A DNA stretch of 64,000 nucleotides from Escherichia phage AV108. Position 1 is the first letter of the stretch; the number at the start of each line of letters is the position of its first letter. The stretch lies in sequence record OR352938.1. One strand, 5' to 3'. Shown one piece after another: positions 7,051 through 32,007 of the stretch. The notes under the pieces are model-generated. The model worked only from the letters and a program-made list of their open reading frames with translations. It searched no databases and was not told where the DNA came from. The position numbers and the translations under genes were made by a program.

Positions 7051-7527
7051 TTATTTTTCTTGATGCTCGCGATCGTACTTTTCGAAATAAAATTCTACTG
7101 GCTGGTCGTGGATTGACAGCAAGCCAAAGCGTTTAGCCGCTCGCAATCCCATATTGCGCTGAATGTACTTCTGGAAGTTCTCGCGTATACACTTACGCCA
7201 GGATTCTAAGCCCATGCAGCTTTTATAAAGATTGCATTGCACACATGCCGGATTCATGTTATCAAGTATATCATGCTCCGGTTTATGCATTCCTACAACC
7301 TTATACTTCCACGATCCATCATCATTACGGGCAATTCGTCCATTTTCATCATAGACAACCTTTGAGCGTCGTAATACTGGTTTGATATGGTCTGCGTGCC
7401 AGCGATCCCCTAGTTCCTCGCCACAATAGGCACAACGTCCACCGTATTTCATTTTCAGGATCTGACGTTGCTCTTTCTTTGACAATTTTTTAGGTTTAGG
7501 GGCTTTCGCCCCTTCATTATCACACAT
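7051..7527 (-). CDS. HNH endonuclease-domain protein
   Basis: CxxC ... HADHIKP ... CVQCN zinc-finger HNH pattern; starts immediately after the ligase stop. Confidence 0.6.
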   Translation of the reverse strand: MCDNEGAKAPKPKKLSKKEQRQILKMKYGGRCAYCGEELGDRWHADHIKPVLRRSKVVYDENGRIARNDDGSWKYKVVGMHKPEHDILDNMNPACVQCNLYKSCMGLESWRKCIRENFQKYIQRNMGLRAAKRFGLLSIHDQPVEFYFEKYDREHQEK

Positions 7528-9016
7528 CGAATACCTCTTTTACTGTATTTGCAGCGGTCTTGTCGTAGCGAATACGTTTGATGATCGGGAGAAATAAAGA
7601 GAACTCCGGTTCATCTTCTTTACGTGATTTGCTGCGAATGTACCCGTTGCATGTCATCTCGATGACTTTTCCAATCAGGTTATGACGGTCAGCCCATAAC
7701 ATTTCTCGGTCAAGTTCATTTCGACGATCGAACGGAATTACACGTTCGATACCATCATCACCTTTTTCGGTTGTAGTGTCGGTTAATCCCGATCCGGTGT
7801 TAGTCATCATTCGTCCACACGCACTACGGACAGTAAAACCGCCTACCTTATTGGGGTCTTTACTATGCGGATATACATCAACAATTTCCGCGTCGAAGTC
7901 AATCACTTCTTTAAATTTAACCTGATCTTTACTACGGCGATCTTCAAATACACCATGTAAATTTTTAAGGATAATACCTTCTAAGCCCATGTTGACATAA
8001 CGATGATATACTTCGCGAGCTTCATCGATATTGTTAACTACAGTGTTTTCGATGATCTGAACACGAGGATCGTTAAGTTCTTCAACAATCTGTTTTAGTT
8101 CTTCAAATCGATCTTTATATTGCTTCGTTGCTTTCTCGTTTCCGTAGTACACATCACGGTCGATAACATCCCAGACAGTGTAAACAATACATTGGGCTTC
8201 TTCTTTTGGAATAGTTCCTTTCAGTGATTTGTTGAGGATACCATTTCCGGTCTGACGGTCTGCAACAACGGATTCTTTCACTGCTTCCGCTACTGGCGTT
8301 AATGGCATTTCCTCTTCTTCAAATATCCATGACAGAGTACCATCATAAACGCTCTCAACGAAGTTCTGCGCTGGTGTTTGCGAAAGGGTAGGCATATATA
8401 CCAATTCACCATCTAGAACAATTCCACGGCCTCGTAGACGCTCTAAAACCGCAAACAAATCATCAAGTCCTTGATAGGTATTACCTGAGCGGGTATAGAT
8501 TGCTAATGTTTCCCCGTCAATATCAGCCATACCACGAGCGCCATCGCTTTTAAGTTGTGCATACGCCGGATACTTGATATTAGCAATAGTCTTATCAGAA
8601 CATGACGATGCAAGGTGACACGGTTGCTGGGGGATCAGTTTCTTCCATACCTTGTTTGCAGTGGTAGCGGAACAACCACATTCCAGATCACGATTCAGGA
8701 CCATCATTGCAACTTTAGCATCATCTTCTGACAAGCAAGTCAGAGTATCGGTAACTAGCTGTAATGCTGCGTTACCAGTTACTTGACGCGTGGCAAGTTT
8801 ATTTTTAAAGACCTGTAATGCACCGGATAAAGACAATACAGACGAATAGCGAGATGGTTTATCGTATTTCTTTACGCCAAACGTAACCTGTTTGCAATAT
8901 GCCAGATAAAAGCATTCTTTCAGTGTTTCATTGCTTGCAGATTCTTTCAGGATCTTTTCTTTCAGCGATGTTTTGTCGGTCGCTGCAAGCTGGTTAATGA
9001 TATTAAGAATTGACAT
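7520..9016 (-). CDS. 30: ATP-dependent DNA ligase
   Basis: collinear with the T4 ligase sequence as recalled (KADGAR active-site region, EGIILKN, C-terminal TVKEVF); ATG at 9014-9016 with GAGGTG RBS, ORF track extends to a GTG at 9022. Confidence 0.9.
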   Translation of the reverse strand: MSILNIINQLAATDKTSLKEKILKESASNETLKECFYLAYCKQVTFGVKKYDKPSRYSSVLSLSGALQVFKNKLATRQVTGNAALQLVTDTLTCLSEDDAKVAMMVLNRDLECGCSATTANKVWKKLIPQQPCHLASSCSDKTIANIKYPAYAQLKSDGARGMADIDGETLAIYTRSGNTYQGLDDLFAVLERLRGRGIVLDGELVYMPTLSQTPAQNFVESVYDGTLSWIFEEEEMPLTPVAEAVKESVVADRQTGNGILNKSLKGTIPKEEAQCIVYTVWDVIDRDVYYGNEKATKQYKDRFEELKQIVEELNDPRVQIIENTVVNNIDEAREVYHRYVNMGLEGIILKNLHGVFEDRRSKDQVKFKEVIDFDAEIVDVYPHSKDPNKVGGFTVRSACGRMMTNTGSGLTDTTTEKGDDGIERVIPFDRRNELDREMLWADRHNLIGKVIEMTCNGYIRSKSRKEDEPEFSLFLPIIKRIRYDKTAANTVKEVFDV

Positions 9017-9482
9017 TTTCACCTCGTTTTGTTAAACGTTCACGAATATCATTGAGGATACTACAAAATTCCGATTCAGTCAATATAGTCTTTAACGGAT
9101 CAGTTCCACCTATGCTATGACGCAATTTCTTATTTCCGGTAGCGAGTAATGCTTTACAAAATTCTGGGTTATTCCGTGCCATCGTAACAAATGCCAGATG
9201 TACCAGTCTGTAATAATGCTCACTCATTCGATGAATAGGGCGACCCTGAAAATATAACATGTGATTCTCAATCTTTTCAGTTCTTCCGGTTCTTTTTGCT
9301 TTGCCACCGTGCATCAAAAAGATTTCTCTTTGTCTCTGAGGGTTCTTAAATCTTAGCCCCTGTAAAAATCCTTCTGTGCTGTTAATATCGCAACCAAATA
9401 GACGGAATGGTCTTTTATTGAAATTACTCAATTCACCCGATGGATAAGGTCCACCCGCATAGATATCAATTTCAGAAGTCAT
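9003..9482 (-). CDS. NADAR (YbiA/DUF1768-like) domain protein
   Basis: by-eye similarity to E. coli YbiA: SNFxxxPF, T.E...Q..KF, LLATG, GG.D...ILT...N.LG segments. Confidence 0.55.
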   Translation of the reverse strand: MTSEIDIYAGGPYPSGELSNFNKRPFRLFGCDINSTEGFLQGLRFKNPQRQREIFLMHGGKAKRTGRTEKIENHMLYFQGRPIHRMSEHYYRLVHLAFVTMARNNPEFCKALLATGNKKLRHSIGGTDPLKTILTESEFCSILNDIRERLTKRGENVNS

Positions 9483-9636
9483 TGAAACTAATCTCGCTAA
9501 TCAGAGAGAACGGATCATAATCGTCATTAGGAATATCGATAGTAATCGAATGAGGGTTTACCCATACACCAAACTGGTCTTCTTCGGTTAATACTTCGGT
9601 ATGGATTTCGTGGATGTTTACATTCATAGTTTTCAT
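9472..9636 (-). CDS. small protein (54 aa), below the ORF-track cutoff
   Basis: ATG 9634-9636 with AAGGAAA RBS; stop overlaps the NADAR start by 11 nt. Confidence 0.35.
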   Translation of the reverse strand: MKTMNVNIHEIHTEVLTEEDQFGVWVNPHSITIDIPNDDYDPFSLISEISFNDF

Positions 9637-9719
9637 AATAAAATTTCCTTAATAATCAATAACTTACAAAATCATATAGTCAAAATATAGGCGGGATTAT
9701 TTCCCGCCGTTTAAAATCA

Positions 9720-10043
9720 TTAACCGTAAACTACCACAATATTCTGTTTGTGTGTTACAGTCCATTTCAGGTCGATCTCTTCTTCCTTCTTAACGCCGTT
9801 AATAACGTCTGGATGAGGAACTTTATTCATCTTGCCATGTGGCAGTAGAACAGTTTTACCCAGCAATTCTTTATCTACAGTCTCGCCAATATCAATAATC
9901 TTACCTACCAGCGGAATCTCACCCATAGTGCGCTTTTGCTCAATAATGATCCCCATAGAGCTTTTTACTTCGGTCCCTGCGCTTTCTGCTTTCGCTTCGA
10001 TAATTACATAATCACCAAGTGCTTTAGGAGTTTTAACGGTCAT
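9720..10043 (-). CDS. 31: GroES-like co-chaperonin
   Basis: 107 aa, GDYVII ... VPHP pattern resembling T4 gp31; position between cd and 30 as in T4; followed by hairpin 9691-9710. Confidence 0.65.
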   Translation of the reverse strand: MTVKTPKALGDYVIIEAKAESAGTEVKSSMGIIIEQKRTMGEIPLVGKIIDIGETVDKELLGKTVLLPHGKMNKVPHPDVINGVKKEEEIDLKWTVTHKQNIVVVYG

Positions 10044-10084
10044 AATTTTATTACCTCTTCAAATCAATACAGTTTAACGATGAA

Positions 10085-10405
10085 TTATTTATAAATTTCG
10101 ACGATCTGCGCTGGAGTCAGCCCGTCCACATTAATCAGACTATCAAGCCCAAAACTACGGAAACCTTCAACTGCAATTTCATATACTGGCAAAGATGTTT
10201 CTGATTCTTTACGCGGTTTTTCAACATTCGGAACTAACCACTTTTCGTATGTTTCGAAAGGCATCAGTGCCGGATCTCGCGTGGCGATCATCTCGCGGAC
10301 AGTACCATCTTTCTTAGTAAACTGCAAAGAGTGAGTACCAACCGAAAACATTTTCTTTAGTGCTTCACGAAGTGCGATATTATCAATTTGTTCGGTCATT
10401 ATCAA
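10085..10405 (-). CDS. hypothetical protein
   Basis: 106-aa ORF between cd and 31. Confidence 0.45.
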   Translation of the reverse strand: MIMTEQIDNIALREALKKMFSVGTHSLQFTKKDGTVREMIATRDPALMPFETYEKWLVPNVEKPRKESETSLPVYEIAVEGFRSFGLDSLINVDGLTPAQIVEIYK

Positions 10406-10898
10406 TACCCTTCAAATCTGTCAATAATGCTTTTGGAATACGCGTGATCGTAATATCTGCATTATTCAGAATATCAGCCCAATCACGCCCACCATTTCGA
10501 TCATATGTGTCGCAATAGTATAGATATTTAATTCCACTGTTTGCAATTGCTTTAGCGCAATCTGGACACGGTGAAGCAGTACACCACATACTAGCGCCTT
10601 CAATCGATACACCGCTACGGGCAGCAAACAAAATAGCATTTAATTCAGCGTGGATCTCGTTTTTCTGTGACCATGCACTATGCTCTGGTCGTTTTTCTGG
10701 GATCATTTTGCCGTCATCATCCAGCCAACCGTTTTTATGTGCATGACAGCTACAATTTACTTGCCCTGCTGGAGTTCCGTTAAATCCAGTAGAAATGATT
10801 CGCCCGTCTTTTTCGATCAGTGCGCCTACCTTCCACGAAACACATTTAGAGTTCTTTGCGATCAGATAGGCGATCTGCATGTAAGTTTGTGACAACAT
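10383..10898 (-). CDS. cd: dCMP deaminase
   Basis: HAELNAI and SPCPDCAKAI zinc-binding deaminase motifs; collinear with T4 Cd as recalled. Confidence 0.85.
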   Translation of the reverse strand: MLSQTYMQIAYLIAKNSKCVSWKVGALIEKDGRIISTGFNGTPAGQVNCSCHAHKNGWLDDDGKMIPEKRPEHSAWSQKNEIHAELNAILFAARSGVSIEGASMWCTASPCPDCAKAIANSGIKYLYYCDTYDRNGGRDWADILNNADITITRIPKALLTDLKGIDNDRTN

Positions 10899-10919
10899 AA
10901 TATAATCCTCACATATTAA

Positions 10920-11123
10920 TTAACCGTATACGCGAAAGTATTCTACTGATCCGTCGCTATACTGTTTTACATTGAATGTATTCACACCATGATTATTTCT
11001 CATGATGACATATACACTGCGACGTTCATCGCTAAACGGCATAACTGGCGCTGGTTCAATATCAACACTAAAACCACGTTTAGCAAGTGCTTCGCCTAAT
11101 TGCTTGAGTTTATCGGTAAACAT
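10920..11123 (-). CDS. hypothetical protein
   Basis: 67-aa ORF between pseT and cd. Confidence 0.4.
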   Translation of the reverse strand: MFTDKLKQLGEALAKRGFSVDIEPAPVMPFSDERRSVYVIMRNNHGVNTFNVKQYSDGSVEYFRVYG

Positions 11124-12001
11124 TAAAATTCTCCGTAGTTAACCTGAAAACATTCTACACCAATTGAGCGGTACATGTCAACCACTTGATCACGGTCATC
11201 TACCGCCAAAACAACATGATAACGCGGTGCAATTTCAGAGAAGAAGATCTCTTTCTTCACTTCATGATCAGGACGACGATCATTAGTTTCACGTTGAAAG
11301 TGATCACTAGGTTCAATACCCTGTTCACGCAACCATTGCAGAGTATCTTCTTCGCAAACATCTTCGCGTCCTGAGCATGTAATGATACGATAACCATTAT
11401 CACGATACAGTTTAAGCATTTCGATCACTTGCGGACGCGGTTTATCTTCTTTGACCTTTGTCCAGTCAAACGGATGACGACCGCCCTTATCCGCTAATGT
11501 TCCATCAATATCAAAGATCACTGCCTTCGGCAGCATGGTATTCGGTTTGTATACTTCTTGACCCATATATTCCTGCATCAGATAAAATTGGTTGCGCAAA
11601 TGAGAAAGTGGGATTGCTTTCTCTCCGCGATAGAAATTACGTTTCTTTAGTGTCTCAAATGATTCATTGAACACTTGTTCAGTATACACCGCGTTAAATT
11701 CTTTTGCAAGTTCTTTGTAGAATACACGATGTTTTTCTTTCAGGTTAGTATCAGAGATAATGATACTAAATCCGCGTGATAGAGTCTCACGAGCAATCAT
11801 TCTCTGAATAGACTCTACCAGCTTTTCTTTTTCCTTAGTATACTTGTATTTCAAATGTGAGTCAACACCAAACAACATAAGACGAAGATCATCACGATTC
11901 ACATTACGATAATTACTAAACCGTTTACATGTTTCCATAGCCCATGTAGTTTTACCAGACCCAGAACAACCAACGGTTAAAATCACTTCACATTTCGGCA
12001 T
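11123..12001 (-). CDS. pseT: polynucleotide 5'-kinase/3'-phosphatase
   Basis: Walker A GCSGSGKTTWA, DxDGT phosphatase motif (VIFDIDGTLA), C-terminal GVECFQV; start taken at ATG 11999-12001 (MPKCEVIL) by alignment to T4 Pnk; ORF track 11123..12022. Confidence 0.9.
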   Translation of the reverse strand: MPKCEVILTVGCSGSGKTTWAMETCKRFSNYRNVNRDDLRLMLFGVDSHLKYKYTKEKEKLVESIQRMIARETLSRGFSIIISDTNLKEKHRVFYKELAKEFNAVYTEQVFNESFETLKKRNFYRGEKAIPLSHLRNQFYLMQEYMGQEVYKPNTMLPKAVIFDIDGTLADKGGRHPFDWTKVKEDKPRPQVIEMLKLYRDNGYRIITCSGREDVCEEDTLQWLREQGIEPSDHFQRETNDRRPDHEVKKEIFFSEIAPRYHVVLAVDDRDQVVDMYRSIGVECFQVNYGEF

Positions 12002-12333
12002 TATTTCTCCTTCGGTTTGCACCGTTCCTCATTAATTTCTTTTCGATAATAACACATGATCAACTTACTTTCAAGTGTATATCTCTTAATATCCGCAAGC
12101 CAGACTCTGAATTTTTGGGAGTCCTCCCACGACATAGAAACTCTAGGTTTACCGTCTATTGTATCCACTTTCAGGTCAATGTCAACTTTTTCTATTGGTG
12201 CTGGTAGTGGAGGATGTAATTTCGGTTCCTGTGAATAATGGTCCATTGTACACGAAGAAAGCGCAAATACAATAGGCACAGCGAAGACGTGGATTATGGC
12301 GGTCTGGAAATTCTTATGTGCTTTCTTAAACAT
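12001..12333 (-). CDS. o-spanin-like outer-membrane lipoprotein
   Basis: from ATG 12331-12333: MFKKAHK n-region, hydrophobic core, lipobox LSSC; lies next to pseT where T4 has its spanin pair; the ORF track extends upstream to 12453. Confidence 0.5.
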   Translation of the reverse strand: MFKKAHKNFQTAIIHVFAVPIVFALSSCTMDHYSQEPKLHPPLPAPIEKVDIDLKVDTIDGKPRVSMSWEDSQKFRVWLADIKRYTLESKLIMCYYRKEINEERCKPKEK

Positions 12334-12449
12334 CCAGTGTATCACGAAAATTGAAAACACCATCAGGATAATAATGCTTGCACCTATCCACAGATAATCA
12401 ACCAGATTAAAATTGCTTATCTGCTCTTGTGTAGGCAATATTTCTATGC

Positions 12450-12773: not shown

Positions 12774-12817
12774 ATTACCCCCAACGACAAAAGGCGGGGA
12801 ACTAGCCCCGCTTATTA

Positions 12818-14384: not shown

Positions 14385-14434
14385 TATCCTTTCCTCACGT
14401 CACAACAAAGGCGGGATTTCTCCCGCCCACCTTA

Positions 14435-17823: not shown

Positions 17824-18027
17824 TCAGGAAGAATCGCCCATTCTACAACCGTATTCATCCTCGACGTAGTAGCAAGTCCCATCATGTCGAGCATCATATT
17901 CATCACCAACAACAAAGCTATCAGCTAGCTCAAAATCTACAGCAACACATTTTAATTTGGTCATAATAAAATCCTCACTTGTTTTTGATGGTTGTATTAT
18001 AGCGGGGATTTCTCCCCGCGTCAACAC
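17824..18027 (-). CDS. hypothetical small protein
   Basis: promoter 17996-18024 lies within the listed 5' end, so the likely start is the internal MTKLK. Confidence 0.35.
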   Translation of the reverse strand: MLTRGEIPAIIQPSKTSEDFIMTKLKCVAVDFELADSFVVGDEYDARHDGTCYYVEDEYGCRMGDSS

Positions 18028-18032
18028 TTATT

Positions 18033-20276
18033 TTACAGCTTGCAAGATGAGCACTCGCTAGCGTCTTCCGTACCATCAGCACCGTCGCGAACGTTCGCAT
18101 AATACAGGGTTTTCAGACCGTAATATTGAGCAAACAACATATCATCTAACACATCAGCAATATCGACTTTACCAGTCTTATAAGTGCTTGGATCGTATGA
18201 TGTATTGGAACTAATCGCCTGATCCACAAACTTCTGCATGATCGCTGCCAGTGTCAGATAAGGCTTGTTACCTTTCTTGATCAGTGTCCAAAGCAGGTCA
18301 ATAACATCAGCATTATTCTCTACGTTCGGAATAACCTGATTAAATTGCCCTTCTTTCGATCCTTTAACCGATACAATACCGCGAGGCGGTTCAATACCGT
18401 TTGTGCTGTTAGATACCTGAGAAGACGACTCACAAGGCATCAGAGCCGAAAGCGTACTGTTACGAATGCCATATTTTTTCAGGTCTTCGCGCAGTTCTTC
18501 CCAATCCATCTCATATACCGGATCAACCAGTTCATCTACTGTCTTTTTGTACCAGTCGATAGGCAGTTCACCGCGTCCATAACGTGTTTCGTGCATCAGT
18601 TCGCAAGCACCCTTCTCTTTAGCCAGTTGCACACTAGCCTTAATCAGAGCATATTGCAAGCGTTCAAACGTTTTATGCGTAAACTCGTTAGCGTCTTCAT
18701 ATGTGAAGAAATTATCCGCGAGATACGATGCAAAGTTAGTCACCCCAACACCCAGAGAGCGACGTTTTTTGGATGTCAGAGCTTGCTCTACAGGATAATC
18801 CTGGTAATCTAACAGGTTGTCAAGTGCACGCACCATAACCATAGCAATGCGTTCTACTTCTTCCATATTTTCGATATCAAAGTTTCCTAAAACATATGCT
18901 GCCAAAGTACATAGGCTGATCTCTGAATCATCACGACCCATCGGTTTTGTAGGCAGAGCAATTTCACAACACAGGTTGGATTGTTTAATCGGTGCTACAT
19001 TACGAATAAACGCCCCGTGATTGTTCATGTTGTCTGTGAACGTTGGGTAGATTCGACCAGTGTTAAAACGTTCAATTGCCACCGCTAAAAACAGGTCTTC
19101 GGCTTTAACACGAGTTTTACGAACACTCGGATCTTTTTCCAGTTTTTCGTAAAGCTGGCGGAAACCTTCCTCATCTCGGAAGTATAGATCCCACAACAAG
19201 CCACCTGCAACATCTGGACTAAACAGAGTAATGTAATCCCGTTTAAGGAATCGCTCTACCATCAGGTTATTAATCTGTACGCCGTAATCAAGATGACGAA
19301 TGCGGTTATCTTCCACCCCCTTATTGTTCTTTAACACAATCAGACTTTCAAACTCTAAATGCCACATTGGGTAATAGAGAGTCGCCGCCCCGCCACGAAT
19401 ACCGCCTTGTGAGCATGACTTAACGGCAGTCTGAAAATGTTTCCAGAATGGGATAACGCCAGTATGACGAACTTCACCATGCCCGATCTTAGATCCTTCC
19501 GCGCGAATCATGCCAGCGTTGATACCGATACCAGCACGCTTGCTAATATACTTGATGATTGCATTTGCTGTTTCGTTGATGCCCTGCAATGAGTCATCAC
19601 TTTCAATCACCACACACGAACTAAATTGGCGTGTTGGGGTACGCACACCTGCCATAATCGGAGTAGGCAGAGAGATTTGCTTATTCGCAACAGCATTATA
19701 AAAATCAATCACATGTTCAAGTCTATTTTCGGTCTCTTCTTGATGCAAGCACATACCGATCAGCATATACGCAAATTGCGGTGTTTCGATGATTTTCTTA
19801 GTGCTGCGATCCTGAACAAGATATTTCTCTTTTAACTGCATCGCACCAGCATAGGTCATTTTAAAATCAAGTTTATGGTCGATGAATTTCTCCAGATATT
19901 CCACTTCTTCACGGGAATACTTTTGCAGAATTTCGCGATCATATTTTCCGATTGCAATATTACGCTCAATATGGCTATAAAAATCAATAGGTTGGAATTG
20001 ACCGTATACTGATTTACGAAGCGCGAACATTGCAAGGTTACTTGCTACATATTGATAATCGGGTGTTTCTACCGTGATGTTATCTGCGGCGACCTTAATC
20101 AATACTTTCTGGATATCATTGGTAGACATACCTTCTGTCAGAAGTGGTTCAACCATATCAAACAATTCATATGGATCAACGTTATGACCTTCGGCTGCCG
20201 CTTCCAGAATTTTCATTACTTTTTCTTTTTCAAACGGAACAGTCAGACCGGAAGACTTAACAACATTTTTAATCAT
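18033..20276 (-). CDS. nrdA: ribonucleotide reductase large subunit
   Basis: 747 aa, long identical blocks to T4 NrdA as recalled (GVIPFWKHFQTAVKSCSQGGIRGGAAT, NSTLSALMPCESSSQVSNSTNG). Confidence 0.92.
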   Translation of the reverse strand: MIKNVVKSSGLTVPFEKEKVMKILEAAAEGHNVDPYELFDMVEPLLTEGMSTNDIQKVLIKVAADNITVETPDYQYVASNLAMFALRKSVYGQFQPIDFYSHIERNIAIGKYDREILQKYSREEVEYLEKFIDHKLDFKMTYAGAMQLKEKYLVQDRSTKKIIETPQFAYMLIGMCLHQEETENRLEHVIDFYNAVANKQISLPTPIMAGVRTPTRQFSSCVVIESDDSLQGINETANAIIKYISKRAGIGINAGMIRAEGSKIGHGEVRHTGVIPFWKHFQTAVKSCSQGGIRGGAATLYYPMWHLEFESLIVLKNNKGVEDNRIRHLDYGVQINNLMVERFLKRDYITLFSPDVAGGLLWDLYFRDEEGFRQLYEKLEKDPSVRKTRVKAEDLFLAVAIERFNTGRIYPTFTDNMNNHGAFIRNVAPIKQSNLCCEIALPTKPMGRDDSEISLCTLAAYVLGNFDIENMEEVERIAMVMVRALDNLLDYQDYPVEQALTSKKRRSLGVGVTNFASYLADNFFTYEDANEFTHKTFERLQYALIKASVQLAKEKGACELMHETRYGRGELPIDWYKKTVDELVDPVYEMDWEELREDLKKYGIRNSTLSALMPCESSSQVSNSTNGIEPPRGIVSVKGSKEGQFNQVIPNVENNADVIDLLWTLIKKGNKPYLTLAAIMQKFVDQAISSNTSYDPSTYKTGKVDIADVLDDMLFAQYYGLKTLYYANVRDGADGTEDASECSSCKL

Positions 20277-20344
20277 ATTACCTCACTTCATATTTTAGCA
20301 GGAACAAGTTTATCCTCCATATTGGGGGCTTTCGCCCCCTTTGT

Positions 20345-21577
20345 TTATACTGCCATTTGAGCGGTGATCGCTGGATGGCTTTGATAGTTGTGAATTTTAA
20401 AGTCTTTCGGAGTCTTTGTCAATACCTCATCTAAAGATTTAAATTCCGGCAACTCAATTGTTGGTTTATCAAACGGAACACGGCTTAACTGTTCCATAAC
20501 TTGATCAAAGTGGTTTTTGTAAATGTGAGTATCTCCACCAGAGAAAATCAGTTCTCCTACCTCAAGATCACACATTTTCGCTATGATGTGAGTTAACAGC
20601 GCATAGCTGGCAACATTAAAGGGCAAGCCCAAAAAGCTGTCTACGCTTCGCTGAAACCACATACAAGACAGTTTACCTTCATTGACGTAGAATTGCACGA
20701 AAGGATGACATACACCCAATACAGCATTATGTGTTCCTTGTACGTTCCATGAGTCAATAATGATCCGGCGATCCGTTGGATTGTTTTTAATTTGTTCAAT
20801 CACGTTTTGTAACTGGTCTTCCCAAATCTTCGGGCGATAGACATATTCTTCATCGTCTTTAGTGCTCGATGTGTCTACGTCCATACTAGCAAAGATCGTG
20901 GTATCTGGTGCTAAAATATCCCCACCCAGATAATCACTATCAAGTAGATAACCGAAATAACCATCATCTACCCATTCCTGGAATCCCCACAAGCAATATG
21001 CATCATTAACAAAATTAGATTGAGTCTTCCAGTGATCTGCTACTAAGAATTGATTATATTCAGAATCAAACTCTTCATAACGCATACCACGCCAGATAGC
21101 ACATAAACGGTCTTCTGTGTCGTTGGTTGGCGTAAAGTCTTCTACCCACGGGTGCTTAAATGTATGTGCATATTTGCTCTTAACGCGCTTAATTTTGATT
21201 TCACCGTGTGGATGAATCGGTTTGCGTCGCCATGCCATACCATACATATTGCCGACATTATAACCATTGAATCGCAAAGGATTCTTTTCTTTCATATCAA
21301 GACAGTTGCCGCGCCAAATGTCGAAGGCTTCTTCGTCAAACTTACCGCGTGTAATTTCCTGTAAGCGACGGCGGTCAAGTGATCCCTCCATAAACCATAG
21401 CAATTCGCCAATTACAGAGGCTGTAGCCATCTTTTTAGTGGTCAGTAATGGGAAACCCTTGCTTAAATCAATTCGCATCTCTGCGCCGAATTTAGAGAGC
21501 GTACCTACCCCCGTGCGGTCTTCACGAGGCCAGCCATTATCAAGAACATCACGCAACAGTTTCAAATATTCTTTCAT
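20345..21577 (-). CDS. td: thymidylate synthase with a large internal insertion
   Basis: TS motifs DRTGVGT, RRIIIDSWNV, CHPFVQFYV, GLPFNVASYALL, GGDTHIYKNH; about 115 extra residues between YGMAWR and EDQLQNV; continuous frame. Confidence 0.88.
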   Translation of the reverse strand: MKEYLKLLRDVLDNGWPREDRTGVGTLSKFGAEMRIDLSKGFPLLTTKKMATASVIGELLWFMEGSLDRRRLQEITRGKFDEEAFDIWRGNCLDMKEKNPLRFNGYNVGNMYGMAWRRKPIHPHGEIKIKRVKSKYAHTFKHPWVEDFTPTNDTEDRLCAIWRGMRYEEFDSEYNQFLVADHWKTQSNFVNDAYCLWGFQEWVDDGYFGYLLDSDYLGGDILAPDTTIFASMDVDTSSTKDDEEYVYRPKIWEDQLQNVIEQIKNNPTDRRIIIDSWNVQGTHNAVLGVCHPFVQFYVNEGKLSCMWFQRSVDSFLGLPFNVASYALLTHIIAKMCDLEVGELIFSGGDTHIYKNHFDQVMEQLSRVPFDKPTIELPEFKSLDEVLTKTPKDFKIHNYQSHPAITAQMAV

Positions 21578-24142: not shown

Positions 24143-24168
24143 AAAAAAAGCCTTCCCGAAGGAAGGCT
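24143..24168 (-). terminator. rho-independent terminator after gene 32
   Basis: hairpin AGCCTTCC-cgaa-GGAAGGCT followed by a U-run on the minus-strand transcript. Confidence 0.65.
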
Positions 24169-24178
24169 TTAAAATTCA

Positions 24179-27025: not shown

Positions 27026-27035
27026 GTGTCAACCC

Positions 27036-27983
27036 TTAGAACTCACCAATTTTCTGTAACATTTTAACTAACGCATTTGTTACAAAATAGTTATAAATTT
27101 TACCGCGTGGTGCTGGTTTAGATTTTTCCCATGCTAACAAAATTTCATATTCGATGTTATCAGGAATAAATTCAAAATCAATAAGTTCGCGGTTTTCGTC
27201 AAAGCGTCGTGCTTCTTCCTCTGTCATCAAAGACTTTGGATCTTCGGCATCGAAAATTTGCTCTAACCATTTGGTTGCAATTGGTTTAGCTCGTTCTCCT
27301 TCCAGTCGTGAGATAATGAAATCACTACGGCACTTGATAGAAGCTACACCGTCTTTTGCGTCACCCTTAACACATTTTACCATAAGGTCTTTGTAAGGGC
27401 TACCATATTTGCATTTCTTCCACGCTTTCTGTACTGGCGACCACTGTTTCACGTTTTTGTATTTGTGCAACTGTGTGTAGTCACCATCGCCGGAGTTGAT
27501 TAGCACCTGGCGACCTTCTACAGAAAACTTTTTAGTTAATACAGCGATTATATCATCCGCTTCAACTTTGTCAACCTTAATAACGTGATAAGGCATGTTC
27601 TCTTTAAACTCTTCGGTGATCTTATTGATCGCAGCAAAGATCATCTCCCAATCACGCGGATCTGCGTCTCGTTTTTCTTTACGGTTGCGTTTATAGTAAG
27701 GTGCGATATCACGTCGCCAGTAACCTTTGCTTGAATCAAAGGCAAGTACCGTAATTGGGTATTGCTCTTTGAATTTTGTCATATTATAACGCATGGTGTC
27801 AAGGATAAGATGACGGATCATACCTTCATTAATAGGATCTTCCGGTTTAAAGGTATGTGAGATAGTAGCAATCATAAGCTGCGACATATCAATCAAATGC
27901 ACACCTTCCGGCAGTTTATCTTCTGGATCATCGAAGAAATCATTAAGTGTAGCGGTCGTTTTTGTAAATGGGTTATACGTCAT
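27036..27983 (-). CDS. rnh: RNase H / flap endonuclease
   Basis: collinear with T4 RNase H as recalled (GYWRRD, YYKRNR, VEADDIIAVL, DGDYTQLHKYKNVKQWSP, PRGKIYNYF). Confidence 0.85.
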   Translation of the reverse strand: MTYNPFTKTTATLNDFFDDPEDKLPEGVHLIDMSQLMIATISHTFKPEDPINEGMIRHLILDTMRYNMTKFKEQYPITVLAFDSSKGYWRRDIAPYYKRNRKEKRDADPRDWEMIFAAINKITEEFKENMPYHVIKVDKVEADDIIAVLTKKFSVEGRQVLINSGDGDYTQLHKYKNVKQWSPVQKAWKKCKYGSPYKDLMVKCVKGDAKDGVASIKCRSDFIISRLEGERAKPIATKWLEQIFDAEDPKSLMTEEEARRFDENRELIDFEFIPDNIEYEILLAWEKSKPAPRGKIYNYFVTNALVKMLQKIGEF

Positions 27984-27985
27984 AA

Positions 27986-28171
27986 TTAAGTTCTCTCCAC
28001 TCTCACAACAACATATTCGCCAAACGAGTTAGATACTTCACGGTCATACCCGTACTTCTCCATAACTCGCAGAATTGCATTGTTTAATTCGGCGCGGAAA
28101 TAATTGTAATCCTTATCAGGGATTCTGTCAACTACCCATTTTGCACCTTCTGACAAATCAACTTTAACCAT
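27986..28171 (-). CDS. hypothetical protein
   Basis: 61-aa ORF upstream of rnh. Confidence 0.4.
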   Translation of the reverse strand: MVKVDLSEGAKWVVDRIPDKDYNYFRAELNNAILRVMEKYGYDREVSNSFGEYVVVRVERT

Positions 28172-28209
28172 AATATATCATCCTCTTTTGTTTCTATCAA
28201 GCCTTATTT

Positions 28210-28217
28210 TATAAATA
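28210..28217 (+). promoter_or_regulatory. T4-type late promoter (TATAAATA)
   Basis: exact TATAAATA 29 nt upstream of the gene 34 start, followed by AAGGAG RBS. Confidence 0.6.
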
Positions 28218-28245
28218 TGAACATACTATAAAAGGAGACCCAATA

Positions 28246-31200
28246 ATGGCAGATTTTTCTCAACATTTCAAGGCCACATTTGGCTTTGACGCTGGTAATG
28301 AAAAGGTCGTCAATGTAGCATACGCAGATAAAAACACATCAACGGATGCGGTCAACGTTGAATTTTTCAATTACCATAATGGCATTACTCAGTATGACAC
28401 AACTCGCGGTTATGATCAATACGGAACTACAATCTATCAAAACCGTCCGTATTATGCAAAAGAAGATATCACAAAGCCAGCAGGTGATTTTGACCCGACT
28501 AAATGGCAAGCACTGCGCACGGACCCACGTTGGGATTATATTGCAGCAACTTCCGGTGATACTCCTTTACAGTCTGGTGATTATATCGCAGCAGATGGTC
28601 AATTTGCAAACTTGACTTTCTCTATGCCAACTAAACCAGCAGAGGGAGACACTATAACAGTAAAAGATATCGGTGGCAAGTGTGGTGTTAACGAATTATC
28701 GTTCTTGAGTACAGGACATGAGTTTTACCATAACGGTAATGTGTACAACCGAAAATGGTATTGCACTACCCCGTATGCAATGAACTATTTCATCTTTGTT
28801 CGTAATCGTTGGCATGTTTATCAGACAGGAACAGAGCCACGCGGTGTGTACGCACAGCCAGCGATTGATGCTATTCAAATGCAGAATGGTGATCAGGTAT
28901 TTCGTCGTAGTTCGTTGGGTAATATTACCTTAGTGCTTCCTAAGTTTGCCAACAATGGCGACATGATCCAGACTACAGACCTTGACGGATTAACCGCAAC
29001 CAACCACGTTACGGTTAAAGTTCATGAGCACGCAGAAGAACAATCAATTGGCACGTCCGGTCTAAAAGAGATTATCGGTAAGCGTAGCGGTCATGGTGTA
29101 TTCATCTTTGACAAGACGGAAAACTTATGGCGTTTGTGGGATGGTGATCAGTCTGTTCGTCTTAAACCGATCATCGATGACACTCGCTTGCAACCTAATA
29201 GCTATGTTGCTGTATTTGGTGATCGTGATGTTACTCTGACGCTGCCGACCAATGTCGAGCCGGGTGATCGTATTCAAGTTTCTATGCAGTATATGAACGG
29301 AAACCAGAATTGCCGTATTATCGCCGCCACAGAGGATACAAAAATCCTTATGCAGAAAAACATGGTTCAGTTTCCTAAGCGTAGCGAGTACCCATTCAAT
29401 GGGACCGATACATGGACGGGAGTATCTGAATTGTCTTTCAACGCTGCAAATGATTATGTACCTTATCTGGAGTTCTCTTATTCAGAAGGTGATGATGGTA
29501 AGAAATACTGGTTGGTGGCACATGCTCACCCGATTGTAGAACGAGTAGATCCGACTCGTAAAGATCGTGTTGGTGTAATTGCACTGGCTACCCAAACTGA
29601 AACGAATAAAAACCATGAAGAGAATCCTAGCGACGAAGTTGCAGTAACACCAAAAATGCTGGCTAATAAAACCGCCAACGAAACTCGACGCGGTATTGCT
29701 CGCATTGCGACTCAAGCGGAAACGCATCAAGATACTGGTTCCAACTTCCTGGATGATGTTATCGTTACGCCTAAAAAGTTAAATGACTGTGTTGCTACCG
29801 AAGCCCGTCGTGGTGTGATGGAAATTGCAACCCAGCACGAAACCAATGAAGGTTTAGACGATACCCGCGCTATTACTCCTAAGAAATTAGAAGAACGTCG
29901 CGCTTCCGAAGATCTCGCTGGTATTGCTGAAATTGTTCAGGCTGGCGGCAGTGCTGCCGCTCGACGTGGCGAAGCTGGTACAGGGATCTATAACATCAAT
30001 GACCATGCTAAAATTGTTACGCCAAAAAACATCAACGAAGTCAAGGCGACCGAAACTTCCCGTGGTGTTGGCTATCTGGCAACTGACGCGGAAGTGCAAG
30101 GGGCTACAGAATCAACCCCGCAAGATGCTTTACTCATCACGACTCGCACGCTAACGAAACGTACTGCTACCGAATCGCGCACTGGTATCGCTGAAATTGC
30201 AACTCAGGAAGAAACAAACTTAGGTCAAAGTGATAACCATATCATCACGCCTAAAAAGTTGCATACTCGCCGCGCAACGGAAACTTTACACGGTTTAGCA
30301 GAAATTGCAACTCAGCCGGAATTTGACGCAGGTCGTGACGATGATCGCATTTCTACCCCATTGAAGATTAAAACCTTCTTTGAGAATGCACAGCGTTTGA
30401 AAGTAGATCCGACTCAGGGGCTTAACCTTACTGGTGATTTGTGGCAAGGTATCATGATCAGCGGTCTGGATGCAACCGAAGATACAAAAGGTGTCGCTAA
30501 AGTTGCGACTACTCAGCTTACTGACGCTGGTCAAGATGATACTACAATCATCACGCCTAAAAAGCTGCAAGGCAAAAAGGCCACCGAAGGTAAAGAAGGT
30601 ATTATCCGAGTTGGTACTCAAGCCGAAACCGTGGCTGGTATTATGGACAATGTAGCAATTTCTCCGAAGAACTTCAAATATGTTGTTCAGACAGAGGATA
30701 CATGGAAAGCAACCGAAGCGCGTCGTGGATTCTTGAAAGTTGCTACTCAGGAAAACTGTTTTGTTGGTGATAATCTGCAAGGTTCTACTCAAGAACTAGG
30801 AAACTACCAGCATGACGGAATTGCTGTTACCCCTAAAGGATTAAACTACGCACTTGCTAATTTCTTACCTAAGATGGCAACCGCTCAGAATAGTTTGAAA
30901 TTGGGTAACGTAGAGGCCTCTAAATGGGCGCGTAGAGACATTGATCAGACCATAGAGAGCAATTACACGTTTAATAAAAACGTTAACGTGAAGGGCGATT
31001 TAGAGTGCTTAAAATCAGGTTCCTTTGAAACTCTGTCTGTGACTAAGAACTCGACCGATGTTCCGAGTAATGGTCATCTGGTGTTGGGTGAGCGTGGAGT
31101 TGACGGTCACACCGGAATTACTCTGCATGGCACAACCGCATCGGAAGGCATGAAAAACTCTTGGTCTATTATCGTTGGTGGTACTGGAACAGCGCAAGTT

Positions 31201-31986
31201 GTTGATAGTGATGCTATCGCTTTCGGTAAAATCAATGATGGTGGAGTCGTTGAGCATTACGCCTTTGCTATGAAACACAATGGCGACGCGACAGCATATA
31301 GAGACTTTATTGCAGGTCGTAACCTGTATGCGAAACAAGGCGGTTTATACATTGTTGACCAGTCTAATCCGGCAATGACTCGTTCCTCAGATGGTATGCT
31401 GAATATCGGTCACGGTGGAAGTGTTAACATCAAGGCAGGTCATCAAACGTTAACTACAGAGATCGCCGGACAGAAATATCAGATCGTACACGCAGGAAAC
31501 GCCGACGAAGTTCTTAACCGTCAGTTTGTTAAGAATGCTGGCGATACAATGGTCGGTAAGCTGACTATGGATAATGCGCCTATTGTTTCTGTTAAGCATG
31601 AAGCTAGCGCGGCAACCGCTCCGGCAATCGGTAACATCGGTTTCTGGAATATGCGAGTTACTACCCAGAACATCAAAGAAACTTATCCAGAGAAGAAAAA
31701 CGGTACTCTGATGCAATGGGGTACTGACGCGGACGGGCTTACCCAGCTTTGGTCCCCTGATGGTACTCATAAACATTATATCCGTTCCGGTACTGGTGGT
31801 CAATGGACCGCATGGGGTGAAATTTACACCAAACAGAATAAGCCTACCGCTCAGGAAATCGGGGCAGTAGTTGCAGAAGGTGGTTTAATGAACTCTATGA
31901 CGGTTCGTGATTGGATCAAAGTTGGTAATGTTAAAATCATCGCCAATAATCTGACTCGTACCGTAGACTTTATCTGGGAAGACTAA
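28246..31986 (+). CDS. 34: long tail fiber proximal subunit
   Basis: 1246 aa; collinear with T4 gp34 as recalled, including the repeated ATQxETNxG ... ITPKKL modules and C-terminal RDWIKVGNVKI. Confidence 0.92.
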   Translation: MADFSQHFKATFGFDAGNEKVVNVAYADKNTSTDAVNVEFFNYHNGITQYDTTRGYDQYGTTIYQNRPYYAKEDITKPAGDFDPTKWQALRTDPRWDYIAATSGDTPLQSGDYIAADGQFANLTFSMPTKPAEGDTITVKDIGGKCGVNELSFLSTGHEFYHNGNVYNRKWYCTTPYAMNYFIFVRNRWHVYQTGTEPRGVYAQPAIDAIQMQNGDQVFRRSSLGNITLVLPKFANNGDMIQTTDLDGLTATNHVTVKVHEHAEEQSIGTSGLKEIIGKRSGHGVFIFDKTENLWRLWDGDQSVRLKPIIDDTRLQPNSYVAVFGDRDVTLTLPTNVEPGDRIQVSMQYMNGNQNCRIIAATEDTKILMQKNMVQFPKRSEYPFNGTDTWTGVSELSFNAANDYVPYLEFSYSEGDDGKKYWLVAHAHPIVERVDPTRKDRVGVIALATQTETNKNHEENPSDEVAVTPKMLANKTANETRRGIARIATQAETHQDTGSNFLDDVIVTPKKLNDCVATEARRGVMEIATQHETNEGLDDTRAITPKKLEERRASEDLAGIAEIVQAGGSAAARRGEAGTGIYNINDHAKIVTPKNINEVKATETSRGVGYLATDAEVQGATESTPQDALLITTRTLTKRTATESRTGIAEIATQEETNLGQSDNHIITPKKLHTRRATETLHGLAEIATQPEFDAGRDDDRISTPLKIKTFFENAQRLKVDPTQGLNLTGDLWQGIMISGLDATEDTKGVAKVATTQLTDAGQDDTTIITPKKLQGKKATEGKEGIIRVGTQAETVAGIMDNVAISPKNFKYVVQTEDTWKATEARRGFLKVATQENCFVGDNLQGSTQELGNYQHDGIAVTPKGLNYALANFLPKMATAQNSLKLGNVEASKWARRDIDQTIESNYTFNKNVNVKGDLECLKSGSFETLSVTKNSTDVPSNGHLVLGERGVDGHTGITLHGTTASEGMKNSWSIIVGGTGTAQVVDSDAIAFGKINDGGVVEHYAFAMKHNGDATAYRDFIAGRNLYAKQGGLYIVDQSNPAMTRSSDGMLNIGHGGSVNIKAGHQTLTTEIAGQKYQIVHAGNADEVLNRQFVKNAGDTMVGKLTMDNAPIVSVKHEASAATAPAIGNIGFWNMRVTTQNIKETYPEKKNGTLMQWGTDADGLTQLWSPDGTHKHYIRSGTGGQWTAWGEIYTKQNKPTAQEIGAVVAEGGLMNSMTVRDWIKVGNVKIIANNLTRTVDFIWED

Positions 31987-31991
31987 TTAAA

Positions 31992-32007
31992 GGGGGCGAA
32001 AGCCCCC
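31992..32007 (+). other. intercistronic GNRA-tetraloop hairpin GGGGGCGAAAGCCCCC
   Basis: perfect 6-bp stem with GAAA loop between genes 34 and 35; the same 16-mer recurs in mRNA sense at 20324-20339 and in part at 7499-7512. Confidence 0.5.

Follow-up and report, generated by a model that had tools for sequence, protein, structure and literature searches.

Do identical, tetraloop-capped hairpins that recur just past unrelated genes of one phage form a family with a role of its own? The question is raised by a 64,000-nt window of Escherichia phage AV108 (OR352938.1), a Krischvirus (RB49-like T4-type phage), where a first-pass annotation had proposed that such elements share a role in transcript processing, stabilisation or attenuation rather than simple termination. 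The recurrence of GGGGGCGAAAGCCCCC is real and non-random. It is also no multicopy repeat but a coincidence of two to three copies among a great many hairpins, and the three GAAA hairpins are no dedicated family but ordinary members of the G/C-rich stem-loops that follow stop codons in T4-type phages. Such gene-end hairpins probably tune message survival or read-through into the next gene.

Table 1. Hairpins, signals and reading frames discussed in the text (window coordinates)
Feature	Position (strand)	Context
AGGGGC-GAAA-GCCCCU hairpin	7498..7513 (-)	starts 6 nt past gene 30 stop (7522-7520)
GGGGGC-GAAA-GCCCCC hairpin	20324..20339 (-)	starts 5 nt past td stop (20347-20345)
A-GGGGGC-GAAA-GCCCCC-U hairpin	31991..32008 (+)	starts 4-5 nt past gene 34 stop (31984-31986)
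Orphan GGAGG (SD-like, RegB-type GGAG)	20314..20318 (-)	6 nt 3' of td hairpin
Sigma-70-like promoter TTGACA-17-TAAAAT	20394..20422 (-)	in td 3' end, ~55 nt upstream of hairpin
Late promoter motif TATAAATA	28210..28217 (+)	upstream of gene 34; defines late g34-g35 unit
U-tailed terminator	33170..33192 (+)	after gene 35, ends g34-g35 unit; TransTerm '35-->36' (RB49)
Second TATAAATA	33321-33328	past gene 35 terminator
PeSL: -35 TTGACG, stem-loop, -10 TATAAT	17996..18024 (-)	between nrdA stop and next small ORF
AGCGGGGA-UUAUC-UCCCCGCU hairpin, then UUUCU	34857..34882 (+)	after gene 36; intrinsic-terminator-like
GGCGGGA-GAAA-UCCCGCC, then UUUGUUG	14410..14427 (-)	denA side; TransTerm 'denA<--ORF225c' (RB49)
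C(UUCG)G-capped terminator	24147..24170 (-)	after gene 32; TransTerm-called in RB49
HNH endonuclease ORF	7051..7527	
Gene 30 ORF	7520..9022	
td ORF	20345..21577	
Gene 34 ORF	28246..31986	

Three copies in a crowded population

The window holds two exact copies of GGGGGCGAAAGCCCCC, 20324-20339 (minus) after td and 31992-32007 (plus) after gene 34, as had been annotated, and AGGGGCGAAAGCCCCT, a shorter copy with two mismatches, past gene 30. The last had been described as a partial copy at the gene 30/HNH junction. The copy is there, but it is coding and not intergenic: the ATG of the HNH endonuclease ORF overlaps the gene 30 stop, and the hairpin spans HNH codons 5-10, ahead of the part that encodes the HNH domain. 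All three copies present the GAAA loop in the mRNA sense of the flanking genes and form within context folds, with free energies of -11.6 to -14.9 kcal/mol (-13.3 kcal/mol for td), which bears out the description of structured elements after stop codons with a hyperstable GNRA loop on the mRNA. A sense-strand 3' U-tract was found at none of the three, and TransTerm calls no terminator in RB49 at these hairpins. Since canonical intrinsic terminators have a U-tract and these elements have none in sense, reading them as something other than simple termination is reasonable.

Chance does not account for the copies. None of 100 dinucleotide shuffles yielded a GGGGGCGAAAGCCCCC-type copy (expectation ~0), and composition predicts ~7e-6 per genome (an arithmetic estimate). 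The 164-kb RB49 genome carries the same two exact copies, the gene 30 copy and one further two-mismatch relative in gene 49, so that the motif stands far above the composition estimate genome-wide. RB49 also has 57 G/C-rich perfect hairpins against 4-9 expected, and their tetraloops are GNRA or UNCG in 13/19 cases read in mRNA sense and 0/19 in antisense (8/11 and 0, respectively, in the window). UUCG hairpins in RB49 are U-tailed terminators, as the terminator after gene 32 also indicates for the UNCG class; GAAA hairpins are mostly U-less or embedded in promoters, although the denA-side hairpin is GAAA-capped and does carry a U-rich tail.

What fails is the notion that these elements make up a specific family united by a single role. 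The exact 16-mer is a generic solution, carried by unrelated contigs of viruses (at least 120) and by contigs of bacteria or archaea (also at least 120), and it fits the G-run/C-run stem-loop repertoire already described for RB49/phi1 (Arbiol 2010). Of 107 viral sites, 74 have the end of a long ORF no more than 30 nt upstream in the GAAA sense alone, and 5 in the opposite sense alone.

A second family, GCGGGGA with a four-nucleotide loop, had been placed at two sites. One is exact: GCGGGGA-GAAA-UCCCCGC (18002-18019) fills the 17-nt spacer between -35 and -10 of a textbook PeSL (promoter-early stem-loop), whose RB49 counterpart is the predicted early promoter Pe:134563. The other, given as 34863-34882, really lies at 34857-34877 and has a loop of 5 nt (GCGGGGA-TTATC-TCCCCGC); its RB49 counterpart is the TransTerm '36-->37' terminator. 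An element within an early promoter and a U-tailed terminator differ in context, which argues against a shared role for the pair. A further near-copy of the GCGGGGA element lies at 12794-12811.

Junctions after td, gene 34 and gene 30

At td, 47 nt separate the hairpin end from the nrdA ATG (20276). Directly 3' of the hairpin in sense comes AAUAUGGAGG, and no start codon stands at proper spacing after the GGAGG; similar 'hairpin then SD' arrangements are seen in 011D4, Makalu003 and LF73P4. The promoter-like sequence in the td 3' end corresponds to a low-scoring predicted early promoter in RB49 (Pe:136961), and the same region of RB16 reads TTGACT-17-TATAAT. If this putative early promoter is active, the hairpin also lies within the nrdA 5' leader, where strong termination would be wasteful, so attenuation at td may be weak.

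The td hairpin is conserved in Krischvirus, RB16/RB43 and PspYZU05, that is, in two genera beyond Krischvirus. RB16/RB43 have GGGGC-GAAA-GCCCC followed by UUUCUU (in RB43 a TransTerm-predicted terminator, 'td-->nrdA'), PspYZU05 has AGGAGGC-GAAA-GCCUCCU (a compensatory change from G-C to A-U in the stem) followed by UUUUUUAU, and Makalu003 and LF73P4 carry GCGGGGA-GRAA-UCCCCGC in the same position. In T4, neither the td/nrdA.2 nor the 34/35 junction has any hairpin, so a phage can in principle do without the element.

The gene 34 hairpin, present in 58/58 Krischvirus records, stands in the middle of the late g34-g35 transcription unit, 11 nt from the gene 35 ATG (32020) and with an SD-like GGGG immediately 3'; a divergent relative keeps the stem there with a UUU loop. 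The gene 30 copy is likewise conserved in 58 genomes, and in one natural isolate, KFS-EC, a G->T change breaks a stem pair. Because flanks are equally conserved, conservation within the genus is uninformative.

Proposed action on the transcript and its alternatives

On balance, we favour the reading that the GAAA hairpins are sense-strand RNA attenuators or barriers to 3' exonucleases, and also recombination joints. They would be promoter-less members of the RB49-type G-run/C-run repertoire that operate in the sense transcript: a few nucleotides past the stop of td, gene 34 or gene 30, a GNRA-capped helix of great stability would fold, and much transcription, for want of a U-tract, would run on into the next cistron. 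The hairpin would then lower downstream expression (attenuation) and/or block 3'->5' exonucleases after downstream cleavage, in which case the upstream cistron message would outlive the downstream one. An experimental precedent is the U-less stem-loop of PeSL211/210, which lowered lacZ expression to roughly the same extent as rrnB T1 (Arbiol 2010, PMC2839356). Selection on the RNA sense strand is supported by the tetraloop bias and by the ORF ends of the viral contigs. Non-random occurrence, stable folding and a position kept despite sequence change after td and gene 34 likewise speak for this reading. The operon layout, with TATAAATA at 28210, the hairpin, g35 and the terminator at 33170, also counts for this reading, and attenuation or stabilisation within g34-g35 would fit a long tail fibre with gp34 and gp35 in a 3:1 ratio. 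What the sequences show is that the hairpins are present, how they are oriented, that they are conserved, that they flank a cassette and that the 16-mer is ubiquitous; attenuation, stabilisation and stoichiometric tuning we infer. Inside the HNH ORF, the hairpin might also limit endonuclease transcription or translation. The identity of sequence may have two sources, convergence on a near-optimal design and copying, the latter if the hairpin and its short flanks act as a joint for the exchange of gene cassettes by recombination.

This last property could instead be the main one, with a module of A-rich spacer, hairpin and SD-like tail supplying homology for cassette excision and insertion, as promoter-less analogues of PeSLs, and any RNA effect secondary. 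Three versions of the td/nrdA junction occur (one plain, one with nrdA.1, one with the methylase), and a G/C-rich GRAA hairpin directly follows the td stop in each. In 011D4 a foreign DNA methylase cassette, unique among Krischvirus records, lies between td and nrdA, flanked by two direct copies of AACAAAGGGGG(G)CGAAAGCCCCCA. Krischvirus and RB16, a Pseudotevenvirus, share a 33-nt island of perfect identity at the td site amid surroundings roughly 55-60% identical, and the td and g34 copies have common flanks outside the stem (AAA upstream, (A)A-TATGG downstream). All this agrees with the PeSL mini-circle model (Arbiol 2010, PMC2839356), but the ~20-25 nt of homology is short against the roughly 100 bp invoked there for PeSLs, flanked cassettes number only one, and the g34/35 and g30/HNH junctions vary by no indel in 58 genomes. 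DNA recombination also has no need of a sense bias for RNA-stable GNRA/UNCG loops, and we consider it unlikely that the hairpins are mainly DNA-level joints.

The same sense bias (13:0 genome-wide) bears on whether the hairpins are intrinsic terminators of the opposite strand, guarding td/nrdA or g34/g35 against antisense transcription, as the A-rich sense-upstream spacer reads as a U-tract on the other strand. This spacer (ACAAA) is conserved in RB49 and RB16; plus-strand GGGGGCUUUCGCCCCC with UUUGUUUAUA, in antisense to td, is among the top terminator-like sites in a consensus scan, which also makes a weaker call antisense to g34; and the GenBank records of TB34 and Makalu_003 annotate an antisense 'terminator' at the td site. 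UUUC, the loop in antisense, is, however, no special tetraloop, the upstream ORF in viral contigs is coded in the GAAA sense by 74:5, and the U-tracts of the RB16 and PspYZU05 orthologues are on the sense side. With poor antisense tails at the g34 (UUUAAUUAG) and g30 (UUCAUUAUC) copies and no plus-strand TATAAATA late promoter anywhere within 20 kb upstream of the td hairpin, antisense termination appears improbable.

Translational control, in which the hairpins would govern how accessible the g35 Shine-Dalgarno is and impede the start of HNH translation, is suggested by position: this Shine-Dalgarno (GGGG) lies 4 nt past the hairpin, in which the 3' arm CCCCC might otherwise base-pair to it, and the gene 30 copy covers +15 to +30 from the HNH ATG. 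T4 restrains homing-endonuclease translation with RNA hairpins, and a UUCG hairpin separates its g37 stop from its g38 start. We nevertheless give this reading little credence: the td copy, 47 nt from the nrdA start, cannot act in this way, MFE folds keep the g35 SD unpaired to the hairpin, and known phage examples sequester the RBS itself, unlike the GAAA hairpins.

Finally, the hairpins might work as single-stranded DNA, excluding gp32/SSB or marking priming or pausing sites in recombination-dependent replication. Their core, GCGAAAGC, is the canonical 'extraordinarily stable' DNA mini-hairpin (Kimoto & Hirao 2026, PMC13037366), occurs at the complementary-strand origin of phage G4 and binds SSB poorly (PMC13037366), and RB49/phi1 stem-loops blocked sequencing reactions without betaine (Arbiol 2010, PMC2839356). 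Such a function is highly improbable given that RNA-stabilising UUCG loops share the sense orientation, that the location right behind a stop codon, seen in unrelated phages too, speaks for gene expression, and that no origin features were seen near the hairpins.

Relation to known stem-loops

The closest relatives of the hairpins, read as sense-strand RNA elements, are the PeSL cassettes of RB49/phi1 and other T4-like phages, of which ~51 were counted in RB49 (PMC2839356; PMC4122927). Both occur in the same phage group with polyG-then-polyC stems, are intergenic, preceded by a stop codon and followed by an SD, and involve U-less stem-loops, one of which lowered reporter expression; PeSL cassettes, like the 011D4 hairpins, are flanked by repeats. 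The three GGGGGCGAAAGCCCCC copies differ in having no -35/-10 around or overlapping the stem and in flanking core genes (td, 34, 30), whereas PeSLs flank ORFans in hyperplastic regions.

For the gene 30 copy, T4 mobE and segF offer a parallel: each is a free-standing homing endonuclease gene immediately downstream of a core gene with a terminator just inside its 5' coding region, thought to limit endonuclease transcripts (PMC2988022). In mobE the terminator carries a (weak) poly(U) tract, and termination was measured at ~30% (PMC2988022), whereas the 7498-7513 hairpin lacks a U-tract. Rho-independent terminators at large share the G/C-rich stem, 4-nt loop and post-stop position, and the td orthologues approach them, with the prediction in RB43 and U-rich tails in RB16 and PspYZU05, but the three window copies have no U-tract on the sense strand. 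The d(GCGAAAGC) mini-hairpin of Hirao has the identical 8-nt core and was described for ssDNA at replication and transcription origins (PMC13037366), while context and strand bias in the window point to RNA.

T4 itself has GGGGC-UUCG-GCCC after the g37 stop and ahead of the g38 start, and GGGACCC-UUCG-GGUUCCC with a U-tract between g35 and g36. Intercistronic C(UUCG)G tetraloop hairpins of this phage were reportedly described by Tuerk and colleagues in PNAS in 1988; like the GAAA hairpins they are hyperstable, lie between cistrons and in some cases lack a U-tract, but their loops are UNCG rather than GNRA, and T4 has no hairpin where the window phage has those after td and gene 34. The 3' stabiliser hairpins of polycistronic bacterial mRNAs, REP-type exonuclease barriers reportedly described by Newbury and colleagues in Cell in 1987, are longer, imperfect, multicopy host repeats, unlike the phage hairpins. 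As stable intercistronic stem-loops that lack terminator activity, shield the cistron upstream of them and make expression unequal across an operon, REP-type barriers would work by the very mechanism that we propose for the GAAA hairpins.

Stem-loops at the ends of td, gene 34 and gene 30

Stable GNRA-tetraloop hairpins stand on the sense strand just past gene stop codons in this phage; their position is kept while their sequence changes, and in Krischvirus they lack a U-tract. Two are exact copies of GGGGGCGAAAGCCCCC, lying in mRNA sense after td and gene 34 just where the first-pass annotation had put them. A partial copy had also been reported at the junction of gene 30 with a predicted HNH endonuclease gene; a shorter version, AGGGGCGAAAGCCCCT, is indeed present, although not at the junction: it lies inside the HNH ORF (7051..7527), whose ATG overlaps the stop codon of gene 30 and whose HNH domain begins only at residue 32. 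The three stems are 6-7 bp long, nearly all G-C, and begin 4-6 nt past the td, gene 34 and gene 30 stops. In mRNA sense relative to their neighbouring genes, all three show a Watson-Crick-closed C(GAAA)G tetraloop, as a GNRA-tetraloop RNA hairpin should, with predicted free energies of -11.6 to -14.9 kcal/mol and a fold that is retained in its sequence context. Neither the GGGGGCGAAAGCCCCC nor the AGGGGCGAAAGCCCCT hairpin occurred in 100 dinucleotide shuffles, and on this and on conservation we rejected a pure chance origin. An Rfam 15 scan of the entire 64-kb window returned no family at the gathering threshold.

Hairpins of the window and a nearby promoter, with strand and context
Feature	Position	Strand	Context
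GGGGGCGAAAGCCCCC, exact copy	20324-20339	-	stem begins 5 nt past td stop (ORF 20345..21577)
GGGGGCGAAAGCCCCC, exact copy	31992-32007	+	stem begins 4-5 nt past gene 34 stop (28246..31986)
AGGGGCGAAAGCCCCT, shorter version	7498-7513	-	stem begins 6 nt past gene 30 stop (7520..9022)
GCGGGGA/TCCCCGC stem-loop	18002-18019	-	TTGACG-17-TATAAT around stem; coincides with published predicted early promoter Pe:134563 in RB49
GCGGGGA/TCCCCGC hairpin, 5-nt loop	34857-34877	+	UUUCU 3' of stem; TransTerm "36-->37" terminator in RB49
Sigma-70-like promoter	20422-20394	-	in td 3' end; predicted Pe:136961 in RB49; 55 nt upstream of td hairpin

The window belongs to a Krischvirus, a T4-type coliphage of the RB49 kind; it is 97-99% identical to RB49, phi1, JSE, GEC-3S and many newer isolates and identical to none of them, and the RB49 genome (NC_005066) with its annotation served as reference for whole-genome counts. 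RB49 holds the same two exact copies, the gene 30 copy and one relative with two mismatches in gene 49, and no others. The genome-wide motif count, which had been proposed as a check on the first-pass annotation, places GGGGGCGAAAGCCCCC far above what composition predicts, yet the motif is not a multicopy repeat. The gene 49 near-copy, GGGGGCAAATGCCCCC at RB49 39535-39550 (beyond the window), sits in the endonuclease VII gene and, on the plus (antisense) strand, precedes CTGTTTTTCG.

G/C-rich hairpins are abundant in RB49, with 57 perfect examples (6 bp or more, of which five or more are G-C), where Markov-simulated genomes have 4-9; the window has 23. Stems pairing a G-run with a C-run recur, namely GGGGATC/GATCCCC, GCGGGGA/TCCCCGC, GGCGGGA/TCCCGCC, GGGGGC/GCCCCC and GGGGGTA/TACCCCC. 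The GCGGGGA/TCCCCGC stem had been described as a second family with two members; the first stands, whereas the second, put at 34863-34882, in fact lies slightly upstream and has a 5-nt loop. The two members have the stem in common and differ in context (see table). As the element at 18002-18019 lies between a -35 TTGACG and a -10 TATAAT, it is a promoter-early stem-loop (PeSL) of the kind described in RB49/phi1-type phages and belongs to the subclass whose stem is placed between the boxes. The PeSL stem seen most often, (A)GGGGATC-N3/4-GATCCCC(T), occurs on the minus strand of the window at 211-227, 2588-2605, 5870-5888 and 7015-7033, between TTGAC and TATAAT/TATACT; its arms carry two GATC (Dam) sites, and RB49 encodes a Dam methylase.

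Strand sense and the terminator question

The tetraloops of G/C-rich hairpins are strongly polarized. Read in gene sense, the 19 in RB49 include six GAAA, four UUCG and one each of UACG, GCGA and GGGA loops; GNRA or UNCG loops therefore appear in sense in 13 of 19 and in antisense in none, and in the window 8 of 11 do so in sense and none in antisense. All UUCG hairpins of RB49 have a U-tract and are classical terminators, for example past gene 32, while its GAAA hairpins are promoter-embedded, U-tailed (as at 14410-14427 of the window) or U-less. The td, gene 34 and gene 30 copies belong to the last kind: their 3' sense tails read AAUAUGGAGG, AUGGGGUUAU and AAACCUAAAA, and none has a U-run (at least five of eight) directly 3' of the stem, as an intrinsic terminator would. 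A consensus terminator scan of the sense strand called none of the three, and all are missing from the TransTerm list of 41 terminators for RB49. A search of the literature for RB49 or Krischvirus transcript 3'-end data, or T4 or RB49 Term-seq maps, found nothing usable.

Could the hairpins instead be intrinsic terminators of antisense transcription? On the antisense strand the consensus scan does flag the td hairpin, since the A-rich spacer on its upstream side reads UUUGUUUAUA there, and GenBank records of TB34 (locus L001, 3825-3847) and Makalu_003 (locus L133, 425-452) carry 'terminator' features at the td hairpin, antisense to td; these annotations probably arose only because the stem has an A-rich spacer on its 5' side. 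The 13:0 loop bias of RB49 favours the sense strand, the plus strand has no TATAAATA late promoter in the 20 kb that precede the td site, orthologous td hairpins bear their U-tract on the sense side, and in other phages the same 16-mer mostly has an ORF end in the GAAA sense. Together these four points make antisense termination unlikely.

Strong termination at the td hairpin in the sense direction is hard to reconcile with the sigma-70-like promoter in the 3' end of td, as nrdA transcripts starting there would be aborted at about 50 nt. A GGAGG lies 6 nt 3' of the td stem without a start codon to serve. RB49 encodes RegB (by annotation), which cleaves at GGAG, and we speculate that a cut at this GGAGG would leave the hairpin as the end of the td mRNA. 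A 10-codon mini-ORF, ATGGAGGATAAACTTGTTCCTGCTAAAATATGA (20288-20320, minus strand), begins 3 nt past the hairpin and overlaps the orphan GGAGG; since it lacks a Shine-Dalgarno sequence (SD) and its ATG is abutted by the hairpin, we take it as chance. Mini-ORF and GGAGG may be relics of the ribosome-binding site of a lost cassette. We rejected a candidate late promoter at the td stop, GTATAAACA, which differs from TATAAATA by one mismatch, is missing at the other two copies and does not figure in the available part of the published set of RB49 late promoters.

Conservation, copying and exchange

A hairpin follows the td stop directly in all Krischvirus records, and the gene 34 hairpin is present in 58 of 58. 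Because few related loci were retrieved (five viral loci with NrdA and three with gp35), comparison beyond Krischvirus rests on RB16/RB43, PspYZU05, T4 and one metagenomic relative. In Pseudotevenvirus (RB16, RB43 and many Enterobacter, Cronobacter, Klebsiella and Citrobacter phages) NrdA protein identity is only about 55%, and the td junction shares with Krischvirus a perfect 33-nt island, ATGGCAGTATAAACAAAGGGGGCGAAAGCCCC, amid roughly 55-60% identity; there the hairpin has UUUCUU 3' of the stem and in RB43 is the predicted terminator "td-->nrdA". The hairpin of Pseudomonas phage PspYZU05, AGGAGGC-GAAA-GCCUCCU with UUUUUUAU after it, shows a compensatory replacement of G-C by A-U and keeps the loop. 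In Makalu_003 and LF73P4, where nrdA.1 adjoins td, the hairpin at the td stop has the second-family stem, as GCGGGGA-GGAA/GAAA-UCCCCGC. At gene 34/35, the divergent metagenomic relative (gp35 87% identical) keeps the GGGGGC/GCCCCC stem with a UUU loop and another tail. The changes that bear on whether relatives maintain the structure are one compensatory pair, one replacement of the whole stem and one loop altered to UUU, too few independent events for statistics. In T4, neither td/nrdA.2 nor 34/35 has a hairpin; UUCG hairpins do occur, one at 35/36 accompanied by a U-tract and a late promoter, and a U-less one separating the gene 37 stop from the gene 38 start. The gene 30/HNH copy is conserved, but its flanks are equally so, and in KFS-EC a G->T change breaks one pair.

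Among isolates, the G- and C-runs of the td and gene 34 stems vary from G5 to G8 (G5/C5, G6/C5, G7/C6, G8/C6 and G5/C4), as in the loci from G5211 (L136), KFS-EC (L137), PHB13 (L138) and ECD7-like phages (L128/L177). The variation may reflect genuine slippage, or sequencing error (homopolymer or compression) at hairpins of such stability.

The td/nrdA junction exists in three states, including nrdA.1 forms and the methylase insertion of phage 011D4 (MT478991). In the latter, a foreign two-ORF DNA methylase cassette of about 0.8 kb lies between td and nrdA (1703-2570 of locus L131, corresponding to window ~20276-20345), bounded by two direct hairpin copies, AACAAAGGGGG(G)CGAAAGCCCCCA. No close relative of the cassette was found in other Krischvirus records, and its nucleotide identity to other phage methylases is at most about 75%. 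This hairpin-cassette-hairpin layout is the topology predicted by the mini-circle model of PeSL cassette shuffling. Presence or absence of a cassette around the hairpin copies was seen at td/nrdA only; among the 58 genomes, there was no gene gain or loss at gene 34/35 or gene 30/HNH. The td and gene 34 copies have common flanks, AAA upstream and (A)A-TATGG downstream. Judged from sequence comparison, the three junction states, the cross-genus island and the common flanks would fit a hairpin module that has been copied, used for exchange and also selected for structure.

The common flanks and the 011D4 duplication support copying; counts in other genomes support convergence. The exact GGGGGCGAAAGCCCCC 16-mer occurs in at least 120 IMG/VR viral contigs and at least 120 bacterial or archaeal contigs, whereas a control with an AAGA loop of the same composition occurs in 37 viral contigs (complete scan). 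Of 107 sites among the viral matches listed, 74 have a long ORF ending no more than 30 nt upstream in the GAAA sense alone, 5 in the opposite sense alone and 11 in both, and a strong T-run follows the stem in just 33 of 115 unique contexts; polarity is weaker among the bacterial matches listed (31 versus 15). These counts and orientations point to a generic, convergent gene-end hairpin that in phages is especially GAAA-sense and mostly U-less. Akkermansia/Akkermansiaceae MAGs make up a striking share of the bacterial contigs among the matches listed (loci L190, L194, L203, L208, L217, L220, L235, L241, L250 and L253-L255), often with the 16-mer near contig ends, which hints at a repeated element containing this hairpin in that lineage.

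The underlying observation of the first-pass annotation was essentially correct. Its suggestion of transcript processing, stabilisation or attenuation rather than simple termination seems reasonable in direction; to speak of a family is over-specific, as the two second-family contexts differ and the 16-mer is generic in at least 120 viral contigs.

Proposed role and place among T4-type stem-loops

The hairpins may lower expression of the downstream cistron, shield the 3' end of the upstream cistron once the downstream RNA is cleaved, or both. Genes 34 and 35 make up a single late unit, with TATAAATA at 28210, the hairpin, gene 35 and a terminator at 33170, the next TATAAATA lying at 33321. In the long tail fibre gp34 and gp35 stand at three to one, a ratio that an attenuator or stabilizer in mid-operon would fit. 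A split-SD role of the T4 gene 38 kind was rejected, as the gene 34 hairpin has no SD on its 5' side. The 3' end of gene 34 also contains a strong antisense sigma-70-like promoter match, TTGACC-17-TATAAT (11/12; 31775-31803, minus strand); in T4, oriG (ori34) lies in gene 34 and its primer RNA runs opposite to the gene (T4 RefSeq annotation). For the gene 30 copy there is a parallel in T4: terminators in the 5' coding regions of the free-standing homing endonuclease genes mobE and segF are thought to restrict endonuclease expression (Edgell, Gibb & Belfort 2010, PMC2988022), and the hairpin likewise lies in the 5' coding part of an endonuclease ORF.

More broadly, it is possible, if on balance doubtful, that the U-less module of stop codon, GNRA hairpin and SD is a widespread and distinct form of phage operon punctuation, one that blocks exonucleases or attenuates instead of terminating, and also a portable joint that admits foreign cassettes to core-gene operons and moves between T4-like genera. 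Were this so, the td and gene 34 copies would have spread by copying and not by convergence alone. If the attenuator or stabilizer reading proposed above is right, the hairpins would help RB49-type phages, which are not known to have MotA-dependent middle transcription, to set relative expression within polycistronic units, such as gp34 above gp35 and limited HNH endonuclease. They would also mark sites where new genes slot into otherwise conserved operons. Annotation pipelines at present assign 'terminator' features here to what is probably the wrong strand, and because the 16-mer is very common in phages and mostly U-less, terminator-based predictions of phage operons may be systematically off there. 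Of most interest are the cassette flanking and cross-genus identity at the td hairpin and the prevalence of U-less exact copies across phages.

By analogy, the hairpins may act as the stem-loop part of a PeSL does and as the intercistronic tetraloop hairpins of T4 do. The PeSL211/210 stem-loop, which in RB49 is AGGGGAUCACGUAUCCCCU followed by AUACUACAC and has no U-tract, lowered lacZ expression to roughly the same degree as rrnB T1 in the PeSL study (Arbiol 2010, PMC2839356). The td and gene 34 copies resemble PeSLs as stable polyG-polyC-type stem-loops in an intergenic position between stop codon and SD, the gene 30 copy being within an ORF. No PeSL -35 and -10 boxes surround any of the three GAAA copies, the nearest being 55 nt upstream, inside td, whereas the element at 18002-18019 has them. 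The three copies therefore lack both the promoter that defines a PeSL and the U-tract of an intrinsic terminator, and are best placed, as promoter-less members not remarked on before, in the known class of T4-type phage gene-end stem-loops, which extends the picture drawn from PeSLs and T4 tetraloop hairpins to core-gene junctions and leaves existing views standing.
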